IMG/VR virus record: IMGVR_UViG_2851976983_000001
Location: 32,001 to 96,000 of that record
DNA from: a virus
Taxonomy: Duplodnaviria; Heunggongvirae; Uroviricota; Caudoviricetes
Length of the DNA stretch: 64,000 nt
Direction: 5' to 3' (one strand)
Position 1 is the stretch's first letter; every line of letters starts with the position of its first letter. Below the pieces are notes generated by a model. It ran no database searches, had not been told where the DNA came from, and saw only the letters and a program-made list of their open reading frames with translations. Position numbers and translations under genes: made by a program. Below, piece after piece: positions 10,762 to 57,304 of the stretch.

Positions 10762-12870
10762 TCACTTTAAAATGATACGAGATAGTTCAGTAACTACAGA
10801 TGAACCAAGACTATCAACGCTCGTTACCAGGGCATGTTTTGAGTAAAATCTCTCCGGTGCGTCAGTCATGATGCCAATTGCCATCAAATCAATGTCAGTC
10901 TGCGTTTCAATTTGCTTCGCAACCGAACGCAAATGAGCGTCAAAACCTCTCCCAACAGCCCACGGCGCGCCATCACTCAGAACAAGCATGATCTTCCTGT
11001 CCTCCATGCGACCGGAAAATAACGATGCAAGGCTGGCTATGCTTTCACCATCCACGTTATTAAGAAGTGGGAATGTGTAGCCTACGCACCCCATACGTGA
11101 GCGAACTTCGCGAGAATTTACCTTTTCATTCCAATTTTTGATGATAGGTAGCATTAAAGATTCAAAGCGAGAGAACTCATACTTGACAGCCTTAAGTTCT
11201 CCTGCCGCCATATGACTACCAAATGTAGTGAAGCCGGTGATAATGTTGGGAACATTTATTCGATCAAGGGCATCGGCGATGGTATATGCACTTGCAAGAG
11301 CCAATTGTATCGTTATACCACTCATTGAACCTGATAAATCAATCACTTGTTGAACACAGGCGTTAACGGCTTTAGATTCTTCTTTTTTACGAAACACGCG
11401 ATCATCATTCATTGCTAATCTGTAGATACTAGAACCATGAATGCGCCCCCGACGCTGGCCCGGTATAAACTGAACTCTGTTTCTGCTTGCTATTGCTCGC
11501 TCCAGGTCTTTTGCCAGCGTCGACGAAACACCTGACGAAAGATGCTTTTCAATATATTTGTCGAAGAGCTGGTTGCCTTCAGGAACGATGCGATAGCGGC
11601 TGATTGGATATCCTCCTAAATCAATATCGGAGAATGTTTTAATAAGCCGTTTGATATGGGCTTCTGCCTGATCAATCGAGCCGATGAAGTCGTATGAGCG
11701 ATTGTATGGCCTGTATTCGCTTTTCGAGCTTTCTGTTAACTCGCTTTTAATCGTTTCGGATAGAGCATCTTCTGTCATGCCTCCGACTTCATCTTCTATG
11801 CTATCCAGCTCCTCTAAAGCCTCTTCCAGACTCATTTTTGACGGAGTTGGGATATCTGAAGAGCCGTCTTCTGTCGTTTTTCTTTTTTCGTGGTCAGCGG
11901 TTAATGATTCTGACGCCGCGTTATCAGAAGCATCAGAATCTGATACCTCTTTATCATTTTCTGTATCATCGAATATTGTTTCTGATGATTCAGAATTATC
12001 TGAATCATCACTGTCATTATTATCATGTTTGTACTTACTGTGTGACTCTGGTTTGATAGATTTGTGATTATCTAGCGATGAGGGTGTCTCATGATCTTCG
12101 TCGTCTTCATTGTTTTCTCCAGAGGCATCCGTCTGGTCAGCGTCTGAAGGATCGGAAGTTTTTCCCGGAGCTGACTCCTTACCTTTGCTTTCACTTTCAG
12201 TGTCTTTGAGGATCTTAGCTATGGTCGCAGCCACCTTTACACAATCCTCGGTGCAAGACATGTTACGCACGGCCACATCGATACCATGTTCTTTTAATAA
12301 TGAAATTGGTTTCTCAATGACAGGCCAGTATTCATCCATGAAATCTACGAACGGTGCTTGGCCATCCCAGGCTCTTACAACCGGACAGAGAAAGAAGTTT
12401 AGAAAAAGCGCGCGCTGATCTTTGCCACAATAAGCAATAGCCTCTGAAGCCTTTGGTTTAAAGACTTTTTCGATTATAAGGCGTTGAGTTGCCATCAGAT
12501 TACGTCTTGTTCCGTTAAAGACCTGCCCCATTTTTCGCTCGATGAACACGTCTTCTAAGGCATTCCATAGCGACCAGGAAGGAACGCGTCCTTTTTCTCT
12601 CATTTTGTTGGACACACGAATATCGGTAAACAAAATGTGAGCAACCTCATGATCGAGAAATCCGCGCACAGCATTCATCAATGCCGGTGTTGCGTTATCC
12701 GGGATTGATGGGATGTTTACGAGAATTGGCTCTCCATCATCGTTATAGCGTACATAAGCGTCGTCTCCTCGTTCTGCAACAGGGATGTTTTTACCTGAAA
12801 GGAGAGCGACTACTCGTTTTACACTGTCACGGAAGTCCTGAACCTCTTTGATGGAACGTTTTTTAGACAT
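10762..12870 (-). CDS. von Willebrand factor A domain protein (CobT-like) with long acidic linker
   Basis: 702 aa; MIDAS-type motif VIDLSGSMSG in the C-terminal part; about 120 aa Asp/Ser/Glu-rich linker. Confidence 0.75.
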   Translation of the reverse strand: MSKKRSIKEVQDFRDSVKRVVALLSGKNIPVAERGDDAYVRYNDDGEPILVNIPSIPDNATPALMNAVRGFLDHEVAHILFTDIRVSNKMREKGRVPSWSLWNALEDVFIERKMGQVFNGTRRNLMATQRLIIEKVFKPKASEAIAYCGKDQRALFLNFFLCPVVRAWDGQAPFVDFMDEYWPVIEKPISLLKEHGIDVAVRNMSCTEDCVKVAATIAKILKDTESESKGKESAPGKTSDPSDADQTDASGENNEDDEDHETPSSLDNHKSIKPESHSKYKHDNNDSDDSDNSESSETIFDDTENDKEVSDSDASDNAASESLTADHEKRKTTEDGSSDIPTPSKMSLEEALEELDSIEDEVGGMTEDALSETIKSELTESSKSEYRPYNRSYDFIGSIDQAEAHIKRLIKTFSDIDLGGYPISRYRIVPEGNQLFDKYIEKHLSSGVSSTLAKDLERAIASRNRVQFIPGQRRGRIHGSSIYRLAMNDDRVFRKKEESKAVNACVQQVIDLSGSMSGITIQLALASAYTIADALDRINVPNIITGFTTFGSHMAAGELKAVKYEFSRFESLMLPIIKNWNEKVNSREVRSRMGCVGYTFPLLNNVDGESIASLASLFSGRMEDRKIMLVLSDGAPWAVGRGFDAHLRSVAKQIETQTDIDLMAIGIMTDAPERFYSKHALVTSVDSLGSSVVTELSRIILK

Positions 12871-31824: not shown

Positions 31825-32192
31825 TTTGTAGCAGAATCATCAGCCTTAACCGTGCTGACAATGCTACCATGATTGCGTAAGAAGCGGCGAATAGAATGTT
31901 CAATAACCTCCGAAAAAGCCTCGATAAAACGAGACAGCTCAGGGTACTGTTTAGCTGGCTTGACTACAAAACGAACACGACCATTCAGGTAAATTGCTTC
32001 AGCTAATGGCTTCACGCTTGCACCAGCGCGCTCAACATCGTCTTTGAAGGTAACGATGAAGCGTGAGTCTTCCGGTTCAATAGCGTCATTATTGAGCTTA
32101 CGTACTTCAAGCTTGTGCTGATTCAGCACATGAGTCTCGATAATACTCGTGCAATCGCGAATAGTTTGTATAGAACGTTTCTCGTTCAGCAT
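31809..32192 (-). CDS. hypothetical protein (127 aa)
   Basis: ORF track. Confidence 0.45.
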   Translation of the reverse strand: MLNEKRSIQTIRDCTSIIETHVLNQHKLEVRKLNNDAIEPEDSRFIVTFKDDVERAGASVKPLAEAIYLNGRVRFVVKPAKQYPELSRFIEAFSEVIEHSIRRFLRNHGSIVSTVKADDSATKWLLH

Positions 32193-51219: not shown

Positions 51220-54200
51220 TTAGTTACGTTGAGTGTTTGGGTTGAGTGATCCGCCAGGGCGTTTCTCTTGAGCGATAGTCTCAAGCGCGATTGCTTTCAT
51301 CCGTTGAGCGGCATTGTTCCATATGCTTTCTGTATCGCCGGATTCAGTTGTGCTACCGTCACTATGGACGTTGATCTCAATTGATACCGGAGAAAGAACA
51401 TTTCCTCCTCCACTCATACCATCGGTACTGAGCGTTACAGGGATTGTTCGACCATCAGGCAATGGAACATACGCCTCATTCATATCGCCTTCCCCAAACA
51501 ACGCCAATTGAGGTGAGTTGGCGATACCGCCTTTCTGGTATGCCCGGAGCGGGATCACGCCGTCTTTTCCGAATATGCCACCATTTGCAAACTTCGGAAT
51601 TGCAGGAATACCATTCGTGCCATCGGCAGCAGAACTGGTCAGATTGTTGAACCCGGAAGTTGAGCCAGAAGAACCGGACATCAATCCATCGAATCCACCA
51701 CCAGCCCATACTGAAACCAAACCAGATGCAACTGTCGCGCCGAAATTCAACCACTTATTACCAGAGCCGGAAGCATTAGCTCCAAGCATTGCAAACGCGG
51801 CAGACAGAGCGCCGGTAACAGAGCTGAGGTTCTGCATCGAGAAGATGGAGTCCTTCACTGCTTTTGTCTCAGCATCTTTGGCTTCGGTGCTATCAAATAG
51901 CCCCGATACCCAGCTACCAATCGCATTTGTTGCTGTGCCAATTGCGCTGGTGGTCTGCTGTGTTGTTTGCCCCAATCCAGTTACCGAACTGGACGTCTCC
52001 TTCGTGGCTTCTCCTACCGACTTGTCGCCATTAACAGTGTTGCCCATTCGTACACCTTGATTGGCAACGGCAGAAGCAACTCCAGTGAGCAAATTGCCAC
52101 TCTGTGAACTACCAGCTGCGGTGGTTCCCATCCCCAACATGTTCATTAGAGGCAGCGTGATTTGCGACTTCACGACCATATTGGTGATATCTTTCAAAAT
52201 GGACTGAGATAGGCTGGAGAAGCTCATCTTCCCGTTAATAACGAAATCAGTCAGGACATCAGTTAAGCCACTAAACAAATCAGTCCAGGTGCTTTCGATC
52301 TGCTCTGCCAAGTTTTCGTATTCCAGTGCCAACTTCTGCGTCGCAGTCCCCGTCTCTTTAATAAGCGCGGTATTGCCAGCAGCAATCAGTTGATTGATTT
52401 TCTTTGTATAAAGCGCCACAACTTTAGGATCAGACGCCTTATCACGAAGTTCTATCAACGCTTTGAGATTGCGGTTGTAGGTGTCTTCGAAATCAGCAAC
52501 TTTCTCTTCGCGAGACGGCGTATAGCCAGCACTAATAATGGAATCCGCCTCCGGTGCCCAAGTGGAGATCATCTGCTCAACATTGCGGCGATTAAACATC
52601 TCGCGATATTCAGGTGTCGCATTTTTGAGGTCTTCAAGACGTTTTTTCGCCTTGTCGATCATCTCTTGAGTGATGAACTCGTTAGGAACCGCATTAGCCA
52701 AATCTGTCAGCGATTTCGTTGTATCGCGAAGAGACTGATCAAACGATACCGTAGCCTTAGAGCTTTCACCCATTTGCCCCATAAGCTGATCGGCTTTGTC
52801 CAGAGCCTTCTGGTATCCGGCTGCCAGTTTCTGTTGCGCTGCCTGTTCCTTCTTGGCCGCACGCTGCGAGGCGTTAGCTGATCGTTGGGCTGCTTTCTCG
52901 GCAGCTGCTGCATCCTGTTCACGAGCTTTAGTTAGTGCAGCAATGGCTGCGGCACGCTCTTCATCGCTCATTTTCTCCAGAGAGCTGGCGCTGGATGCTT
53001 TCTGCAAATTAAGCTGCGTCTTGAGTTGTTTAGGCCCAATAATCGGCTTACCTTCGAAGTCCATCATCGGAGTGCCGTCAGGCAAAGTACGCTGATAAGT
53101 CGCAGAATCCATCTGGTTTCGCATATATTGCGCCAACGCCTTCTGAGCAGCTTTATCAGTTGTACCTAACCCAAGAACAGTCCCCTGGTTTGACATTACG
53201 CCCTTACCAGTTTTGGCCGCGTTATCTCTCTCGAACTCTGCCTGAGTAAGTTCCTGAGCAACGGCTTCCAAATGCTCCTGATAACCACGAATACTGCCTT
53301 GCAGTTTCTGGATTTGCTCGGTATTGCCATCCTTTTTGGCTTTTTCAAGCTGATCATTAAGAGTCGCGATTTGCTTCTCGGTCGCATTCTTACGAGAAGA
53401 AAGTGAATCAACCAGTTTTTGCGCAGGCTCCAGATAGCTTTTGTTTACCGTTTCACGTAACGGTGCCAATAGCTTGTTCTTTTCGTCATCTGAAAGTGAA
53501 CCGTCATCATTGATTTTCTGGATCTTGTCCAGAGCCTCCTGCCGGGCTTTCACGAATGTTGCCGCGAAAATCTGGTTTTCCGCTCGAATTTTCTCAATCT
53601 GAGATTCGGCAGCCTCTTTAGCCAAACGCTTTGCTACAGCGCCGTCACCAAGAGCTATCGTGCCGGTTATCTTTTGATATTCTTCCTGATTTTTTTTCAG
53701 GCGTGCTTCGATGTCAGCCTTCGACTCTTTGTGAGTAATAACACCGGCAGAGTTAGATACGTAATTAACACCCTCACCAGTTTTTAATGCTCGTTGATCA
53801 GCAAGAATCTGCTTTTCGAGCTTTTCTGCGCGGTCGGCCATTTGTGCACGTTTGGCCGCCGTCATCGCCTCTGGTATTTTCCTAATCTCGTCAACGACCT
53901 TTGAAGTTTCGCTGCGGAGCATGGTCATGTACGTGATTAGGCCAGCAACAGCTACAGTGGCAACTGTAAATGCTGCCCCTATAGGGTTTGCTGCAATGAA
54001 CGCCGTTAATCCAGCAAAAGCGCCTTTAAGCCCCGTAATCGCCCCACGGATGGCGAAAATAAGAGAGGGGATCGGAGCCAGCCCCATACGTGCCGCACGA
54101 TTGAATCGAGTTACTGCTGTAGCGCCGAGGTTAAATGGAGTCTGTATGGCGGTCGCCATCGTGGCAAAGGTGCTAACCATCTGGCTCCCAGCGCCAACTA

Positions 54201-55812
54201 CCCCCATGATCCCTGCTCGCATCAGTTTGAACGCAACCATCGCGGCCACGACCTTACCGAGATTAATTACCAGTTCTTGGTTCTTTGCTAACCATTGAGC
54301 AAGCTGACGCAACCCATCGATTGCCGTTGTTAACCCCGAACCTAAAGAATTGGCAAACGAAATCCCTTCGGCGCTATTCATGATTGAAGCCAGTTCTTTC
54401 ATCCCCTTCGATAGAGAATCCAGATATCCGGCCTGACCAACCCGATCAGCAAATAACGTGAATGACGTCTGAAGTTGCGCCAGCGCACCTGTGTAGGTTT
54501 GCATCATGTCTTTCGCTGCGTTCTCATTCTCCGCACGCAGACCAACAAACATCAGAGACAACGCCTGTTTTGCCTCAACCGTACCGCTGGCAACGGCTTT
54601 AGTCAGTTCCCCCATAGTGATGCCTGCGGCGTCTGCCATTGCCTGCATCGCGTTAGGAACGGCTTCACCTAATTGCTGACGTAGCTCTTCCATTGACACA
54701 ACGCCCTTACCGGACATCTGCTGAACGGCCACAGCCGCACGTTTCAACAGCTCACTATCACCACCAAAACGAGCAACGGAGTCCACCAGCGCCTTCAGAG
54801 AACCATCGGTTGGATCTAAGCCAGCAGAACGAAACTTCACGAAGGAGTCTGTTAACGCCTGCATCGCGAACGGCGCATTTTGAGCCATGTCTACGATGTA
54901 CTTCATATCATCAGCCGCAGCCTGGCCCGGGTTGGACTTCTCCTTATTCAACCCTCGAAGCATCACCCGCATACGTTCCATTTCGGCCGCAGCTTCAACA
55001 ATAGGCTTCTGCCACCCAAACATGATGTCAGTAACCGTTCTGGCTGCATCTCCGATCTCGCCAAGCAGGAAAATGTTGCCACGAAGGCCAGAGAACATAC
55101 CTCCTTCGTTACTTTTACCGCTATGGCCAGAAGCGCCGCTACGCCGCCCGCTACCACCATCGCCACTTCCAGATGTACGAACGCGTACCGGCTTGCTAAT
55201 CAGTTGCTGACGTCCGATAACTTCGTCCATCTGCTCACGAACCTTTTTCAGTCCCTCGGCAGCCTGACTCGTTGTGACACCCCAATTACTGAGTCGCTTC
55301 GTCGTGGTATTAAGGCGCGTATTCATGCCACTCACGGACACAGAGGCTTCTTTGACCTCCGTACCAAAGCGGCTTGCGCTTTTGCTTGCATAGGTCGCCC
55401 AATCAGAGAAATCATTTAGCTCTGATTGCACTTTACGTAATGACGCGGTGAGTTTATCTACTGAAGAAGTTGTCGTATCGACGCGCTCAATCAGGGCTTT
55501 AAGACCAGAATTGAGGCTGGTGATGTTGCCACGCATTTTACGCGTAGCATCTGAAGCAAGCTCAAAACCGGCAGCTACATCCTGTAGTTTATCTGCCGTA
55601 GAATCGAGCTTGCTTTCCAGAACGCCAATGATACGGGCGACCGAACCCAAAGAGCGTTCAAAGGTTTGGATTTTTTGAGCAGGCTTTGTTACCTGCTCAC
55701 CAAATCGAGTAAGCAGTTTCCCCGCACGATCGATTGACGCTGTAAACTGTTTGTCTTCCAGCGACAGGATAAACTCTACGTTTTGTGACATTCCCTTGTC
55801 ATCCTCTGCCAA
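51220..55812 (-). CDS. tail tape measure protein
   Basis: 1530 aa, coiled-coil-rich, Gly/Ala-rich hydrophobic segments; position upstream of M/L/K/I/J. Confidence 0.85.
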   Translation of the reverse strand: MAEDDKGMSQNVEFILSLEDKQFTASIDRAGKLLTRFGEQVTKPAQKIQTFERSLGSVARIIGVLESKLDSTADKLQDVAAGFELASDATRKMRGNITSLNSGLKALIERVDTTTSSVDKLTASLRKVQSELNDFSDWATYASKSASRFGTEVKEASVSVSGMNTRLNTTTKRLSNWGVTTSQAAEGLKKVREQMDEVIGRQQLISKPVRVRTSGSGDGGSGRRSGASGHSGKSNEGGMFSGLRGNIFLLGEIGDAARTVTDIMFGWQKPIVEAAAEMERMRVMLRGLNKEKSNPGQAAADDMKYIVDMAQNAPFAMQALTDSFVKFRSAGLDPTDGSLKALVDSVARFGGDSELLKRAAVAVQQMSGKGVVSMEELRQQLGEAVPNAMQAMADAAGITMGELTKAVASGTVEAKQALSLMFVGLRAENENAAKDMMQTYTGALAQLQTSFTLFADRVGQAGYLDSLSKGMKELASIMNSAEGISFANSLGSGLTTAIDGLRQLAQWLAKNQELVINLGKVVAAMVAFKLMRAGIMGVVGAGSQMVSTFATMATAIQTPFNLGATAVTRFNRAARMGLAPIPSLIFAIRGAITGLKGAFAGLTAFIAANPIGAAFTVATVAVAGLITYMTMLRSETSKVVDEIRKIPEAMTAAKRAQMADRAEKLEKQILADQRALKTGEGVNYVSNSAGVITHKESKADIEARLKKNQEEYQKITGTIALGDGAVAKRLAKEAAESQIEKIRAENQIFAATFVKARQEALDKIQKINDDGSLSDDEKNKLLAPLRETVNKSYLEPAQKLVDSLSSRKNATEKQIATLNDQLEKAKKDGNTEQIQKLQGSIRGYQEHLEAVAQELTQAEFERDNAAKTGKGVMSNQGTVLGLGTTDKAAQKALAQYMRNQMDSATYQRTLPDGTPMMDFEGKPIIGPKQLKTQLNLQKASSASSLEKMSDEERAAAIAALTKAREQDAAAAEKAAQRSANASQRAAKKEQAAQQKLAAGYQKALDKADQLMGQMGESSKATVSFDQSLRDTTKSLTDLANAVPNEFITQEMIDKAKKRLEDLKNATPEYREMFNRRNVEQMISTWAPEADSIISAGYTPSREEKVADFEDTYNRNLKALIELRDKASDPKVVALYTKKINQLIAAGNTALIKETGTATQKLALEYENLAEQIESTWTDLFSGLTDVLTDFVINGKMSFSSLSQSILKDITNMVVKSQITLPLMNMLGMGTTAAGSSQSGNLLTGVASAVANQGVRMGNTVNGDKSVGEATKETSSSVTGLGQTTQQTTSAIGTATNAIGSWVSGLFDSTEAKDAETKAVKDSIFSMQNLSSVTGALSAAFAMLGANASGSGNKWLNFGATVASGLVSVWAGGGFDGLMSGSSGSTSGFNNLTSSAADGTNGIPAIPKFANGGIFGKDGVIPLRAYQKGGIANSPQLALFGEGDMNEAYVPLPDGRTIPVTLSTDGMSGGGNVLSPVSIEINVHSDGSTTESGDTESIWNNAAQRMKAIALETIAQEKRPGGSLNPNTQRN

Positions 55813-56185
55813 ATATTTGCATCAGTTGCTCTTTGGCGTCAGGGTCTGCCTTATCCTGGCTTGGATCGTAGACTTTATCTGTTACGACTGGTCTTCCAAT
55901 CCTGAGTTGCAAACCCTCCATGAACGCCTTCACAGCCTCGCCATCCGCCTGGGACGCACGAGCGACTTGTAAGTTGCGGACATCCTCTTCCGCACGCAGA
56001 CGGTCTATATTGCGACTGAGCATCCAGAACATCGTGAGAGGAACGTTCAGTAGCTCTAATGGCGACACGGCGTAGTGAGCAACTACACGACTGAAATAGA
56101 ATCCGAGATCTATTGAGACGGTCCTTGTCCCGGATTCATCGCGGGAAATTACTTTGCCCCTTCGCCAGCCGCTTTTTCGTTTTCT
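55799..56185 (-). CDS. tail assembly chaperone T-like frame (-1 relative to G, overlapping G 3' end)
   Basis: Open -1 frame spans 56185 down to 55799, overlapping the last 12 codons of G; track lists it from GTG at 56068. Confidence 0.45.
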   Translation of the reverse strand, partial: RKRKSGWRRGKVISRDESGTRTVSIDLGFYFSRVVAHYAVSPLELLNVPLTMFWMLSRNIDRLRAEEDVRNLQVARASQADGEAVKAFMEGLQLRIGRPVVTDKVYDPSQDKADPDAKEQLMQIFGRG

Positions 56186-56466
56186 TCATCAATCACTTCC
56201 ATAGCGAAGGTGAAGATCTGCTGGAGTTGCGGAACAGTCAGTTTTTCAAGAACTTCGTCAGGTACTGAAGGGATAACCTTACGAACCAGATCTGCATAAG
56301 CTGTCACTTGCTCAACAGGAGACATGTTCATGAGATCTTTACCTTCCATCTGCTTGATGGAAACGAACAGACCTACCGTCATTTCAACGATGGGATATTC
56401 CTGACCGCCAAATTTGATGCTTTTCTTCGGAGGCAGAATGGAATCGAGATCGAGTAATTTGGTCAT
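56149..56466 (-). CDS. tail assembly chaperone G-like
   Basis: 105 aa acidic protein between major tail and tape measure genes. Confidence 0.6.
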   Translation of the reverse strand: MTKLLDLDSILPPKKSIKFGGQEYPIVEMTVGLFVSIKQMEGKDLMNMSPVEQVTAYADLVRKVIPSVPDEVLEKLTVPQLQQIFTFAMEVIDEENEKAAGEGAK

Positions 56467-56521
56467 TGGTTAAAATCCTTTTAAAAGAGAGGCCCATCCT
56501 GAGCCTCTGCTTAATTACTGA

Positions 56522-57304
56522 TTAATCTGCGGGGTTAATCGTTACTGATTTAGTTGCCTTCTTACCACCGCTATTGCTGGTGAAGGAGATATTTGTAGAA
56601 CCCTGCGCCACACCACGTACCAGACCCGTTTGATCTACCGTGGCCTTTTCCTGGTCTTCGGATTCCCAAACACCGGTTTTGTCTGCGGCATCAGCTGGAG
56701 TGATTTCGGCTGTCAGTTGCACAGTTTCTCCAGCTTTTACGGTTGGAGATTCCGGTGCGATCGACACAGTTTTTACCGGTTTAGGGCCGCTCATTCTTCC
56801 CAGAACGCCTTCGTCATCAGGGTATGCGCTGAACTGAACAGAGAACACACGAACATCATCAGACTGGTAGGTCATAGTGAAGTTGCCCGCGGTTGCCGCT
56901 TTCGGGATGGTCAACACATAGTCGGTGGTGTCCTGCGGAGTCAGAACCAGCTCCTTCGCCACATCAATCAGGTTAACGCCCTGTGCAGATGTGATCGTGA
57001 CAGAGTTGTCATCTTCGCTCAGAGTAGAACCAGGCATCAGGTCAACCATGTTTTGGAGTACAGACTCAGCCAGAGGCGCGGTGATGGTAATGTTGCGCCC
57101 CTGAACTAATTCGGAAATTACGGTCTGCCCCAACTGATCGACGGTGACTTTCAGTGTTTCAGTGGCTACTTCAACCTGAACACCACCTTTGGTGTAACCC
57201 AAATCCACACCACCAAACGACACCTTACAGGCACCAAGTTTGATGTTTTTTACATGGGTATTAGACATTGATGGAAAACTCCTTTTTCCGTTAATTCTAC
57301 GCAT
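56522..57304 (-). CDS. major tail protein with C-terminal Ig-like (Big_2) domain
   Basis: 260 aa; C-terminal Ig-like repeat similar to those in the 59928 ORF. Confidence 0.65.
   Translation of the reverse strand: MRRINGKRSFPSMSNTHVKNIKLGACKVSFGGVDLGYTKGGVQVEVATETLKVTVDQLGQTVISELVQGRNITITAPLAESVLQNMVDLMPGSTLSEDDNSVTITSAQGVNLIDVAKELVLTPQDTTDYVLTIPKAATAGNFTMTYQSDDVRVFSVQFSAYPDDEGVLGRMSGPKPVKTVSIAPESPTVKAGETVQLTAEITPADAADKTGVWESEDQEKATVDQTGLVRGVAQGSTNISFTSNSGGKKATKSVTINPAD

Follow-up and report, generated by a model that had tools for sequence, protein, structure and literature searches.

In the tail module of an SSU5/Cyrano-type siphovirus phage-plasmid, two overlapping genes, which on the evidence of sequence most likely encode the G and T components of a tail assembly chaperone like that of lambda (hereafter G and T), are probably joined into a single fusion protein by -1 ribosomal slippage at the tetranucleotide A_AAG, positions 56155..56152 of the minus strand, immediately before the stop codon of G. 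The DNA analysed, called the window throughout, is a stretch of 64,000 nucleotides (nt) covering positions 32,001 to 96,000 of the IMG/VR virus record IMGVR_UViG_2851976983_000001, and all positions are counted from its first letter unless a locus is named. Among all the relatives compared, this A_AAG is the lone shift-prone sequence that they have in common. The reading frames and signals concerned, all located on the minus strand, are the following.

56466..56149, minus strand: G-like tail assembly chaperone gene, with a predicted 0-frame product of 105 amino acids (aa), from the ATG at 56466 to the TAA at 56151..56149.
56191..56186, minus strand: TGA TGA in the -1 frame, beyond which, on translation, the G/T overlap of the window does not extend upstream.
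56185..55799, minus strand: T-like open frame of 128 codons, -1 relative to G (offset +2), closed by the TGA at 55801..55799.
56158..56152, minus strand: proposed shift site G_GCA_AAG, with the slippery tetranucleotide A_AAG at 56155..56152, located by its conservation in 102 loci.
56152..55799, minus strand: T segment that would be read after the shift, 117 codons (GTA 56152..56150 through GGA 55804..55802) and then TGA.
56151..56149, minus strand: TAA stop of G, directly 3' of the slip codon, a candidate "shifty stop" stimulator (AAG followed by a stop in 102 of 102 loci).
56143..56086, minus strand: candidate stimulatory hairpin beginning 8 nt after AAG, from minimum-free-energy (MFE) folds and RNAalifold.

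An earlier note on this DNA had described the T-like frame as open from 56185 and overlapping the last 12 codons of G in the -1 frame, and translation confirms it: the overlap consists of the final 34 nt of G ahead of its stop (about 12 codons), and a run of 128 open codons would be expected by chance with a probability of about 0.002, i.e., (61/64)^128. The same note had reported that the overlap holds no canonical X_XXY_YYZ heptamer; this is borne out by a programmatic scan of the window G, in which no such heptamer was found in frame anywhere in the gene, while the only tetramers retrieved within the overlap were A_AAC (56182), A_AAA (56176) and A_AAG (56155).

The position of the shift was narrowed by comparing 102 loci carrying a G homologue, taken from annotated phages, GTDB genomes, IMG/VR and contigs encoding more distant proteins; together they encode 33 distinct G proteins, whose identity to the window G goes down to 56%. 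In every one of them AAG is the last sense codon of G, preceded by GCA (95 loci) or GTA (7) and followed at once by TAA (94 loci) or TAG (8). The point at which the -1 frame opens is variable, lying 34 nt before the G stop in 54 loci, 10 nt in 44, 25 nt in 2, 94 nt in 1 and just 7 nt in the locus L102; in Salmonella phage SSU5 and 43 other loci, a synonymous change of GGC to GGT in G creates a TGA in the -1 frame, with the opening 10 nt before the stop. The last 7 nt of G (G_GCA_AAG) are the sole stretch open in the -1 frame in all 102 loci, each of which carries A_AAG in the frame of G, the -1 frame being readable through it from 7 nt or more before the stop. Since 45 loci, SSU5 included, have a -1 stop 7-10 nt before the G stop, a shift common to all would be confined to G_GCA_AAG, and within it to A_AAG. 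The G_GGG run of the window was ruled out as a shift site, given that GGGG becomes GAGG, GAAG or GACG in relatives (GAG, GAA or GAC). The conserved G-T -1 frameshift put forward in the earlier note thus finds support in gene order, in the -1 relation of the frames and in conservation at the protein level down to 56% G identity; its suggestion of a non-standard shift site is supported too, the region being free of heptamers and the site falling at A_AAG.

If ribosomes enter T at this site, the -1 frame should be under selection as protein from the first codon after the shift, well before any start codon of its own, and it is indeed conserved from there with the pattern KVI[ST]R.E.G..V.[IV]SID[LF]GFYFSRV[VIA]A.Y... 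Over the 30 codons from the shift to the GTG at 56068, which is the first ATG, GTG or TTG in the T frame beyond the G stop, variable sites at codon positions 1, 2 and 3 number 13, 8 and 23 (chi-square p=0.02); a first set of 66 sequences gave 12, 3 and 23 over the same codons, and the undisputed part of T shows an alike pattern (35, 23 and 65). Differences in length within this start-less stretch are always of whole codons (REEESG vs RDESG; SGQMVT vs SGTRT). The second frame overlaps G in -1 and carries no conserved start of its own: no T start codon is conserved among the 102 loci, the first in-frame ATG, GTG or TTG occurring, according to the genome, at codon 10, 11, 29, 35, 36, 39, 40, 41 or 45.

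All the deposited annotations, as well as RefSeq PGAP, call two separate hypothetical proteins, and these calls favour an account in which T is an independent gene started at the GTG 56068 (89 aa) or at the ATG 56032 (77 aa), no fusion is made and the overlap of the frames is incidental; phrog_1131, which is built on the short form, likewise spans just aa 45-128 of the 128-codon frame, i.e., from the GTG. This account is unlikely, given that the 30 codons ahead of the GTG are conserved with changes dominated by third positions and codon-sized indels, and that the GTG itself is missing from many relatives, the L093 and L012 types having an Ile codon (ATT) or the like in its place. By eye, no sequence resembling a Shine-Dalgarno (SD) element was seen in the window ahead of either start, and a promoter and terminator scan of the gap between G and T was negative. 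Gene callers place the start differently, their T calls (P0034-P0153) being of 74, 77, 83, 86, 89, 108, 109, 116 and 131 aa, with at least nine N-termini; moreover, in a mediocre structural model of T, a beta-hairpin and the first helix (residues 16-27) lie upstream of the GTG, and residues 21-30 have the highest mean predicted local distance difference test score (pLDDT) of the model, 86. Independent initiation at the GTG, which the earlier note had named as the result that would refute a fusion, is on these grounds unsupported: the upstream codons are conserved as protein, no start is conserved and no SD was seen. A related possibility, in which ribosomes terminate at the TAA of G and reinitiate at the ATT 56149..56147 to release a free T of about 116 aa, would account for conserved T-frame sequence starting right at the stop and agrees with the 116-aa form given by one gene caller (P0034); ATT does serve as the start codon of a few E. 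coli genes. Loci with a TAG stop, however, have GTT in place of the ATT, L100 has GAA, no SD was seen at a suitable position and the invariant A_AAG would be left unexplained, all of which makes reinitiation highly improbable.

The remaining alternatives accept a fusion and place its origin elsewhere. A shift occurring mainly at GAA_AAA_G (A_AAA, 56176..56173) or at A_AAC (56182) would give the junction ...EENEK-SGWRRGKVISR..., and both tetramers are usable in the window as well as in 53 further loci, where the -1 frame is open from 34 nt before the stop; A_AAA is in addition a weak yet measurable tetramer in E. coli, although far below A_AAG in efficiency (PMC4066793). In the 45 loci that include SSU5, however, a -1 TGA lies downstream and a shift at these tetramers would lead to immediate termination, and GAA_AAA_G was ruled out as the common site for that reason; the run is also absent from Photorhabdus and other relatives (GAA GCC GC.), its five A becoming GAA GCC in several of them, and the -1-frame peptide SGWRRG is not conserved. 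Predominant use of an upstream tetramer is accordingly very unlikely, if somewhat less so than reinitiation. Transcriptional slippage, by which RNA polymerase would produce mRNAs with one base more or less and so fuse G and T, yields like products in some bacterial and insertion sequence (IS) genes, as outlined in PMC5009743. The permitted interval of 7-10 nt holds a run of three A only, and the longest run in the overlap, of five A, is excluded by the -1 stop of the SSU5-type genomes. Productive slippage of this kind needs about 7 or more identical bases, and we consider it to have next to no chance of being the cause here.

Slippage at A_AAG would proceed as follows. Most ribosomes would translate the 105 aa of G and terminate at the TAA 56151..56149, while a minority would slip backward by one nucleotide on the final sense codon: the tRNA-Lys, the single mnm5s2UUU species of enterobacteria, would leave AAG (56154..56152) and re-pair with AAA (56155..56153). 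The slip may take place with this tRNA in the A site and the tRNA-Ala on GCA, or with it in the P site before a release factor has recognised the stop codon; either route would lead to the identical protein. Reading would then continue in the -1 frame with GUA AUU UCC ... to the TGA 55801..55799, and the predicted GT fusion would contain 105+117 = 222 aa, with a junction in which ...AAGEGAK is followed by VISRDESGTRTV...; the Glu-C peptide predicted to span the junction is ...KAAGEGAKVISRDE. By analogy with lambda, the G part would bind the tape measure protein and the T part would recruit the major tail protein, and a low rate of slippage, such as we infer here, would fix a high G:GT ratio.

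Among minimal -1 sites, A_AAG is the one studied best. In E. coli no other -1 tetramer is as efficient (hierarchy A_AAG >> U_UUC > ...), and it reaches up to 5.6% there when combined with a strong pseudoknot stimulator (PMC4066793); E. coli has one lysine tRNA, and NNA_AAG sites, used naturally in IS1222 and present in B. subtilis cdd, vary in efficiency with the 5' codon, tRNAs of wider wobble giving more frameshifting (PMC5009743). The hosts of the element are Enterobacterales (E. coli, Salmonella, Klebsiella, Yersinia and Photorhabdus). GCA and GUA, which in E. coli are decoded by cmo5U34 tRNAs, would fit the favourable wobble class as 5' codons.

As for signals that might stimulate the slip, the stop codon of G may be one of them, lying next to the slip codon in every locus. 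Another candidate is the downstream hairpin, made of an outer helix (CGCGAU 56143..56138 with GUCGUG 56091..56086) and of a core 10-bp helix, GAAUCCGGGA/UCUCGGAUUC, within 56137..56099. Its topology is identical in the MFE folds of nine relatives and the core is recovered by RNAalifold; across 26 distinct sequences pairing holds in 96% of cells, three pairs are changed on both sides (e.g., U-A to G-C in Photorhabdus), the observed score is reached by 1 of 500 shuffles, and in some relatives the folding energy z-score goes down to -3.3. The hairpin is a plausible but unproven stimulator; an Rfam scan of 55700..56600 gave no match. The upstream SD-like AAGGGG, which recalls prfB, was ruled out in this role: relatives have GAAGAA or GACGAC instead, and the spacing of 1-2 nt would suit a +1 rather than a -1 shift, while the +1 frame closes after 6 codons.

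Several considerations weigh against slippage at A_AAG or against the help it would receive from its surroundings. The case for it rests wholly on comparative sequence analysis, and the loci are phylogenetically close, so that the invariance of 7 nt coding in two frames is less striking than the figure of 102 implies. Termination in E. coli is strong where U comes after UAA, which makes a prolonged pause at the stop less likely. With regard to the hairpin, its energy in the window is no better than that of shuffled sequences (z=-0.62 and -0.41), both of its arms also encode conserved residues, and the L098/L102 lineage breaks two of its pairs. Finally, unstimulated tetramers give about 0.15% in E. 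coli against a background of 0.11% (PMC4066793); because tetramers alone barely exceed background, a stimulator is needed, and the evidence for the one required here is weak.

The assignment of G and T to a lambda-type chaperone pair draws on their position and frames, rather than on recognised families. Pfam gave no match to either at E<=0.1 save one spurious, NCBIfam none at E<=1, and a sequence search of the PDB nothing below E=0.1; in particular, no similarity to the Pfam families of lambda G or T was detected. The only PHROG matches of the pair are phrog_893 and phrog_1131, both of unknown function. The best viral structural matches of the G model are tail assembly chaperones, and G may have the fold of these proteins; the model of the T segment is poor (pLDDT 68, predicted template modelling score 0.41), and a BFVD search with it returned a single uncharacterised homologue and no fold assignment.

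Compared with systems already described, the proposed arrangement is closest to the gpG/gpGT -1 frameshift of lambda (Levin, Hendrix and Casjens 1993; Xu, Hendrix and Duda 2004, 2013, 2014, as cited in PMC5009743). As in lambda, two overlapping open reading frames (ORFs) lie between the major tail and tape measure genes, the second is in -1 and start-less, the shift would occur near the 3' end of G with tRNA-Lys moving from AAG to AAA, and abundant G with rare GT would be expected. In lambda the slip takes place on a tandem heptamer, G_GGA_AAG, some codons ahead of the end of G. The site proposed here has a P-site codon, GCA or GUA, that is unable to re-pair, so that the A_AAG tetramer, abutting the stop, would alone be slippery; the window G and T, moreover, are without detectable similarity to curated chaperone families. 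Re-pairing of a single tRNA next to a non-re-pairing 5' codon is shared with IS1222 (G_CGA_AAG), B. subtilis cdd (A_CGA_AAG) and the A_AAG sites of the IS3 family (PMC5009743), and cdd, like G, has its site at the extreme 3' end. The intrinsic efficiency of NNA_AAG and Z_ZZN sites is low, and both the 5' codon and stimulators influence it (PMC5009743, PMC4066793). The present site differs in its 5' codon, which is GCA or GUA and not CGA, and in the gene that carries it, a putative tail chaperone gene and not a transposase; upstream of it no SD-like element is conserved, and any stimulator would be a bulged hairpin, unlike the pseudoknot of IS3. The immediate succession of a slippery last sense codon and a stop, found in 102 of 102 loci, recalls "shifty stop" frameshifting (Weiss et al. 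1987; prfB-type sites, as cited in PMC5009743 and PMC10885494); in contrast to the present -1 site, where a role of the stop is a candidate one, the classic natural cases are +1 (prfB CUU_UGA, with an SD 3 nt upstream).

The nature of the element carrying these genes is apparent from its sequence. The 900 bases around G and T have 99.8% identity with Escherichia phage Cyrano (OV696614) and "phage CMS-2020a", 90% with Salmonella phage SSU5 and about 87% with several Klebsiella phage-plasmids; at 99.9-100% identity the segment is found in 229 of 5426 complete E. coli genomes, on plasmids every time and on chromosomes never, and the plasmids NZ_CP025870 and NZ_CP050499 are 100% identical to the window segment 55700..56600. 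The near-identity to Cyrano and CMS-2020a, together with the plasmid-only occurrence in E. coli, identifies the window as an SSU5/Cyrano-type siphovirus phage-plasmid. Records of the element also come from Yersinia pestis, Kluyvera, Klebsiella, Salmonella and Photorhabdus. In two loci, L006 (JAEWTL010000011.1) and L010 (DALYYK010000001.1), the tail module lies inside metagenome-assembled genomes labelled Bacillota / Candidatus Fimivivens, labels that are probably a binning artefact. The order of genes on the minus strand, identical in all relatives examined, is major tail (with Big_2), G, T and tape measure; the two flanking genes are located in the window as follows.

57304..56522, minus strand: major tail protein with a C-terminal Big_2 immunoglobulin (Ig)-like domain (Pfam Big_2, E=2.9e-25; phrog_1280 and major tail PHROGs; annotation of Cyrano and SSU5).
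55791..51220, minus strand: tape measure protein (Pfam TMP_3, 4.4e-27, and Tape_meas_lam_C, 6.1e-13; start as annotated in Cyrano and SSU5).

The major tail ORF of the window has 260 codons, and public records begin it at the internal ATG 57268. The tape measure ORF, called mechanically, has 1530 aa and begins at the TTG 55812, inside the end of T; the ATG 55791, used by public records, stands 7 nt past the T stop with GAGGA 11 nt upstream, and by these features it looks to be the right start rather than the TTG.

A slippery codon directly before a stop recurs at the neighbouring major tail gene in part of the relatives.

L093 1703-2448, L095 1704-2449, L097 1696-2447 and L100-L102 approximately 1370-2150 (coordinates of the respective loci): major tail/Big_2 region, whose window counterpart is 57304..56522, minus strand.

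Nine relatives, of the types L093, L095, L097, L098 and L100-L102, have a major tail gene of 163 aa closed by C_CCA_AAG and then TAA, TAG or TGA; the -1 frame runs without interruption through that stop into the Big_2 domain (~80 aa), reading G-P-K-V... The window itself has tail protein and domain in one frame (..SGPKPVKTV..), and L099 has no Big_2 at all. C_CCA_AAG is a canonical and highly shift-prone heptamer, and frameshifting is known to add Ig-like extensions to structural proteins in other phages (T3 capsid, Lactobacillus A2, Listeria phages; PMC5009743). The arrangement of the nine relatives, with Big_2 in the -1 frame of the major tail gene, resembles these cases and is likely a second programmed -1 frameshift, which would provide tail-tube subunits with and without the Ig domain. 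The recurrence of an A_AAG-stop in the same tail module supports the productive use of such sites by the lineage. Separately, the fused form of 248 aa is replaced in one close relative, L049 (IMGVR_UViG_3300014614_000001), by a major tail ORF of 164 aa that ends in GGCCCAAAGCGG TGA, possibly by a frameshift mutation or an assembly error.

Elsewhere in the window, A_AAG followed by a stop ends 3 of the 101 ORFs of at least 100 aa; one of these, an ORF of 702 aa at 12870..10762 (minus strand) that ends in A_AAG_TGA, was ruled out as a second case, its -1 continuation being of 14 codons and looking like chance. A broader proposal, which we regard as doubtful, is that SSU5-type phage-plasmids use a minimal, stop-adjacent slip signal, NNA_AAG-UAA/UAG, as a lineage-wide design. 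Were it true, every member would employ the signal at G/T, and some would have it a second time at the junction between major tail and Ig domain (C_CCA_AAG-stop); frameshifting would compete directly with the release factor, and the efficiency of termination, rather than a tandem-slippage heptamer, would set or modulate both the G:GT ratio and the fraction of Ig-decorated subunits.

In the five phage records and the RefSeq plasmids examined, the two frames are always entered as separate hypothetical proteins, T never being joined to G, and no link of SSU5 or of phage-plasmids with a frameshift was found in the literature searched; G/GT frameshifting and A_AAG sites are each known, and their combination in this phage family appears to be unannotated. 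The general picture of tail assembly and of frameshifting is unchanged by it: we are dealing with an ordinary system provided with a slightly unusual slip site, and not with a new kind of system. The site offers a compact test case for the contributions of a stop codon and a weak hairpin to -1 slippage, and it adds a natural phage example of a minimal A_AAG site of the sort that is missed by heptamer-based frameshift predictors. For the phages themselves, recognition of the G/GT pair corrects the annotation across a whole and widespread phage-plasmid family.

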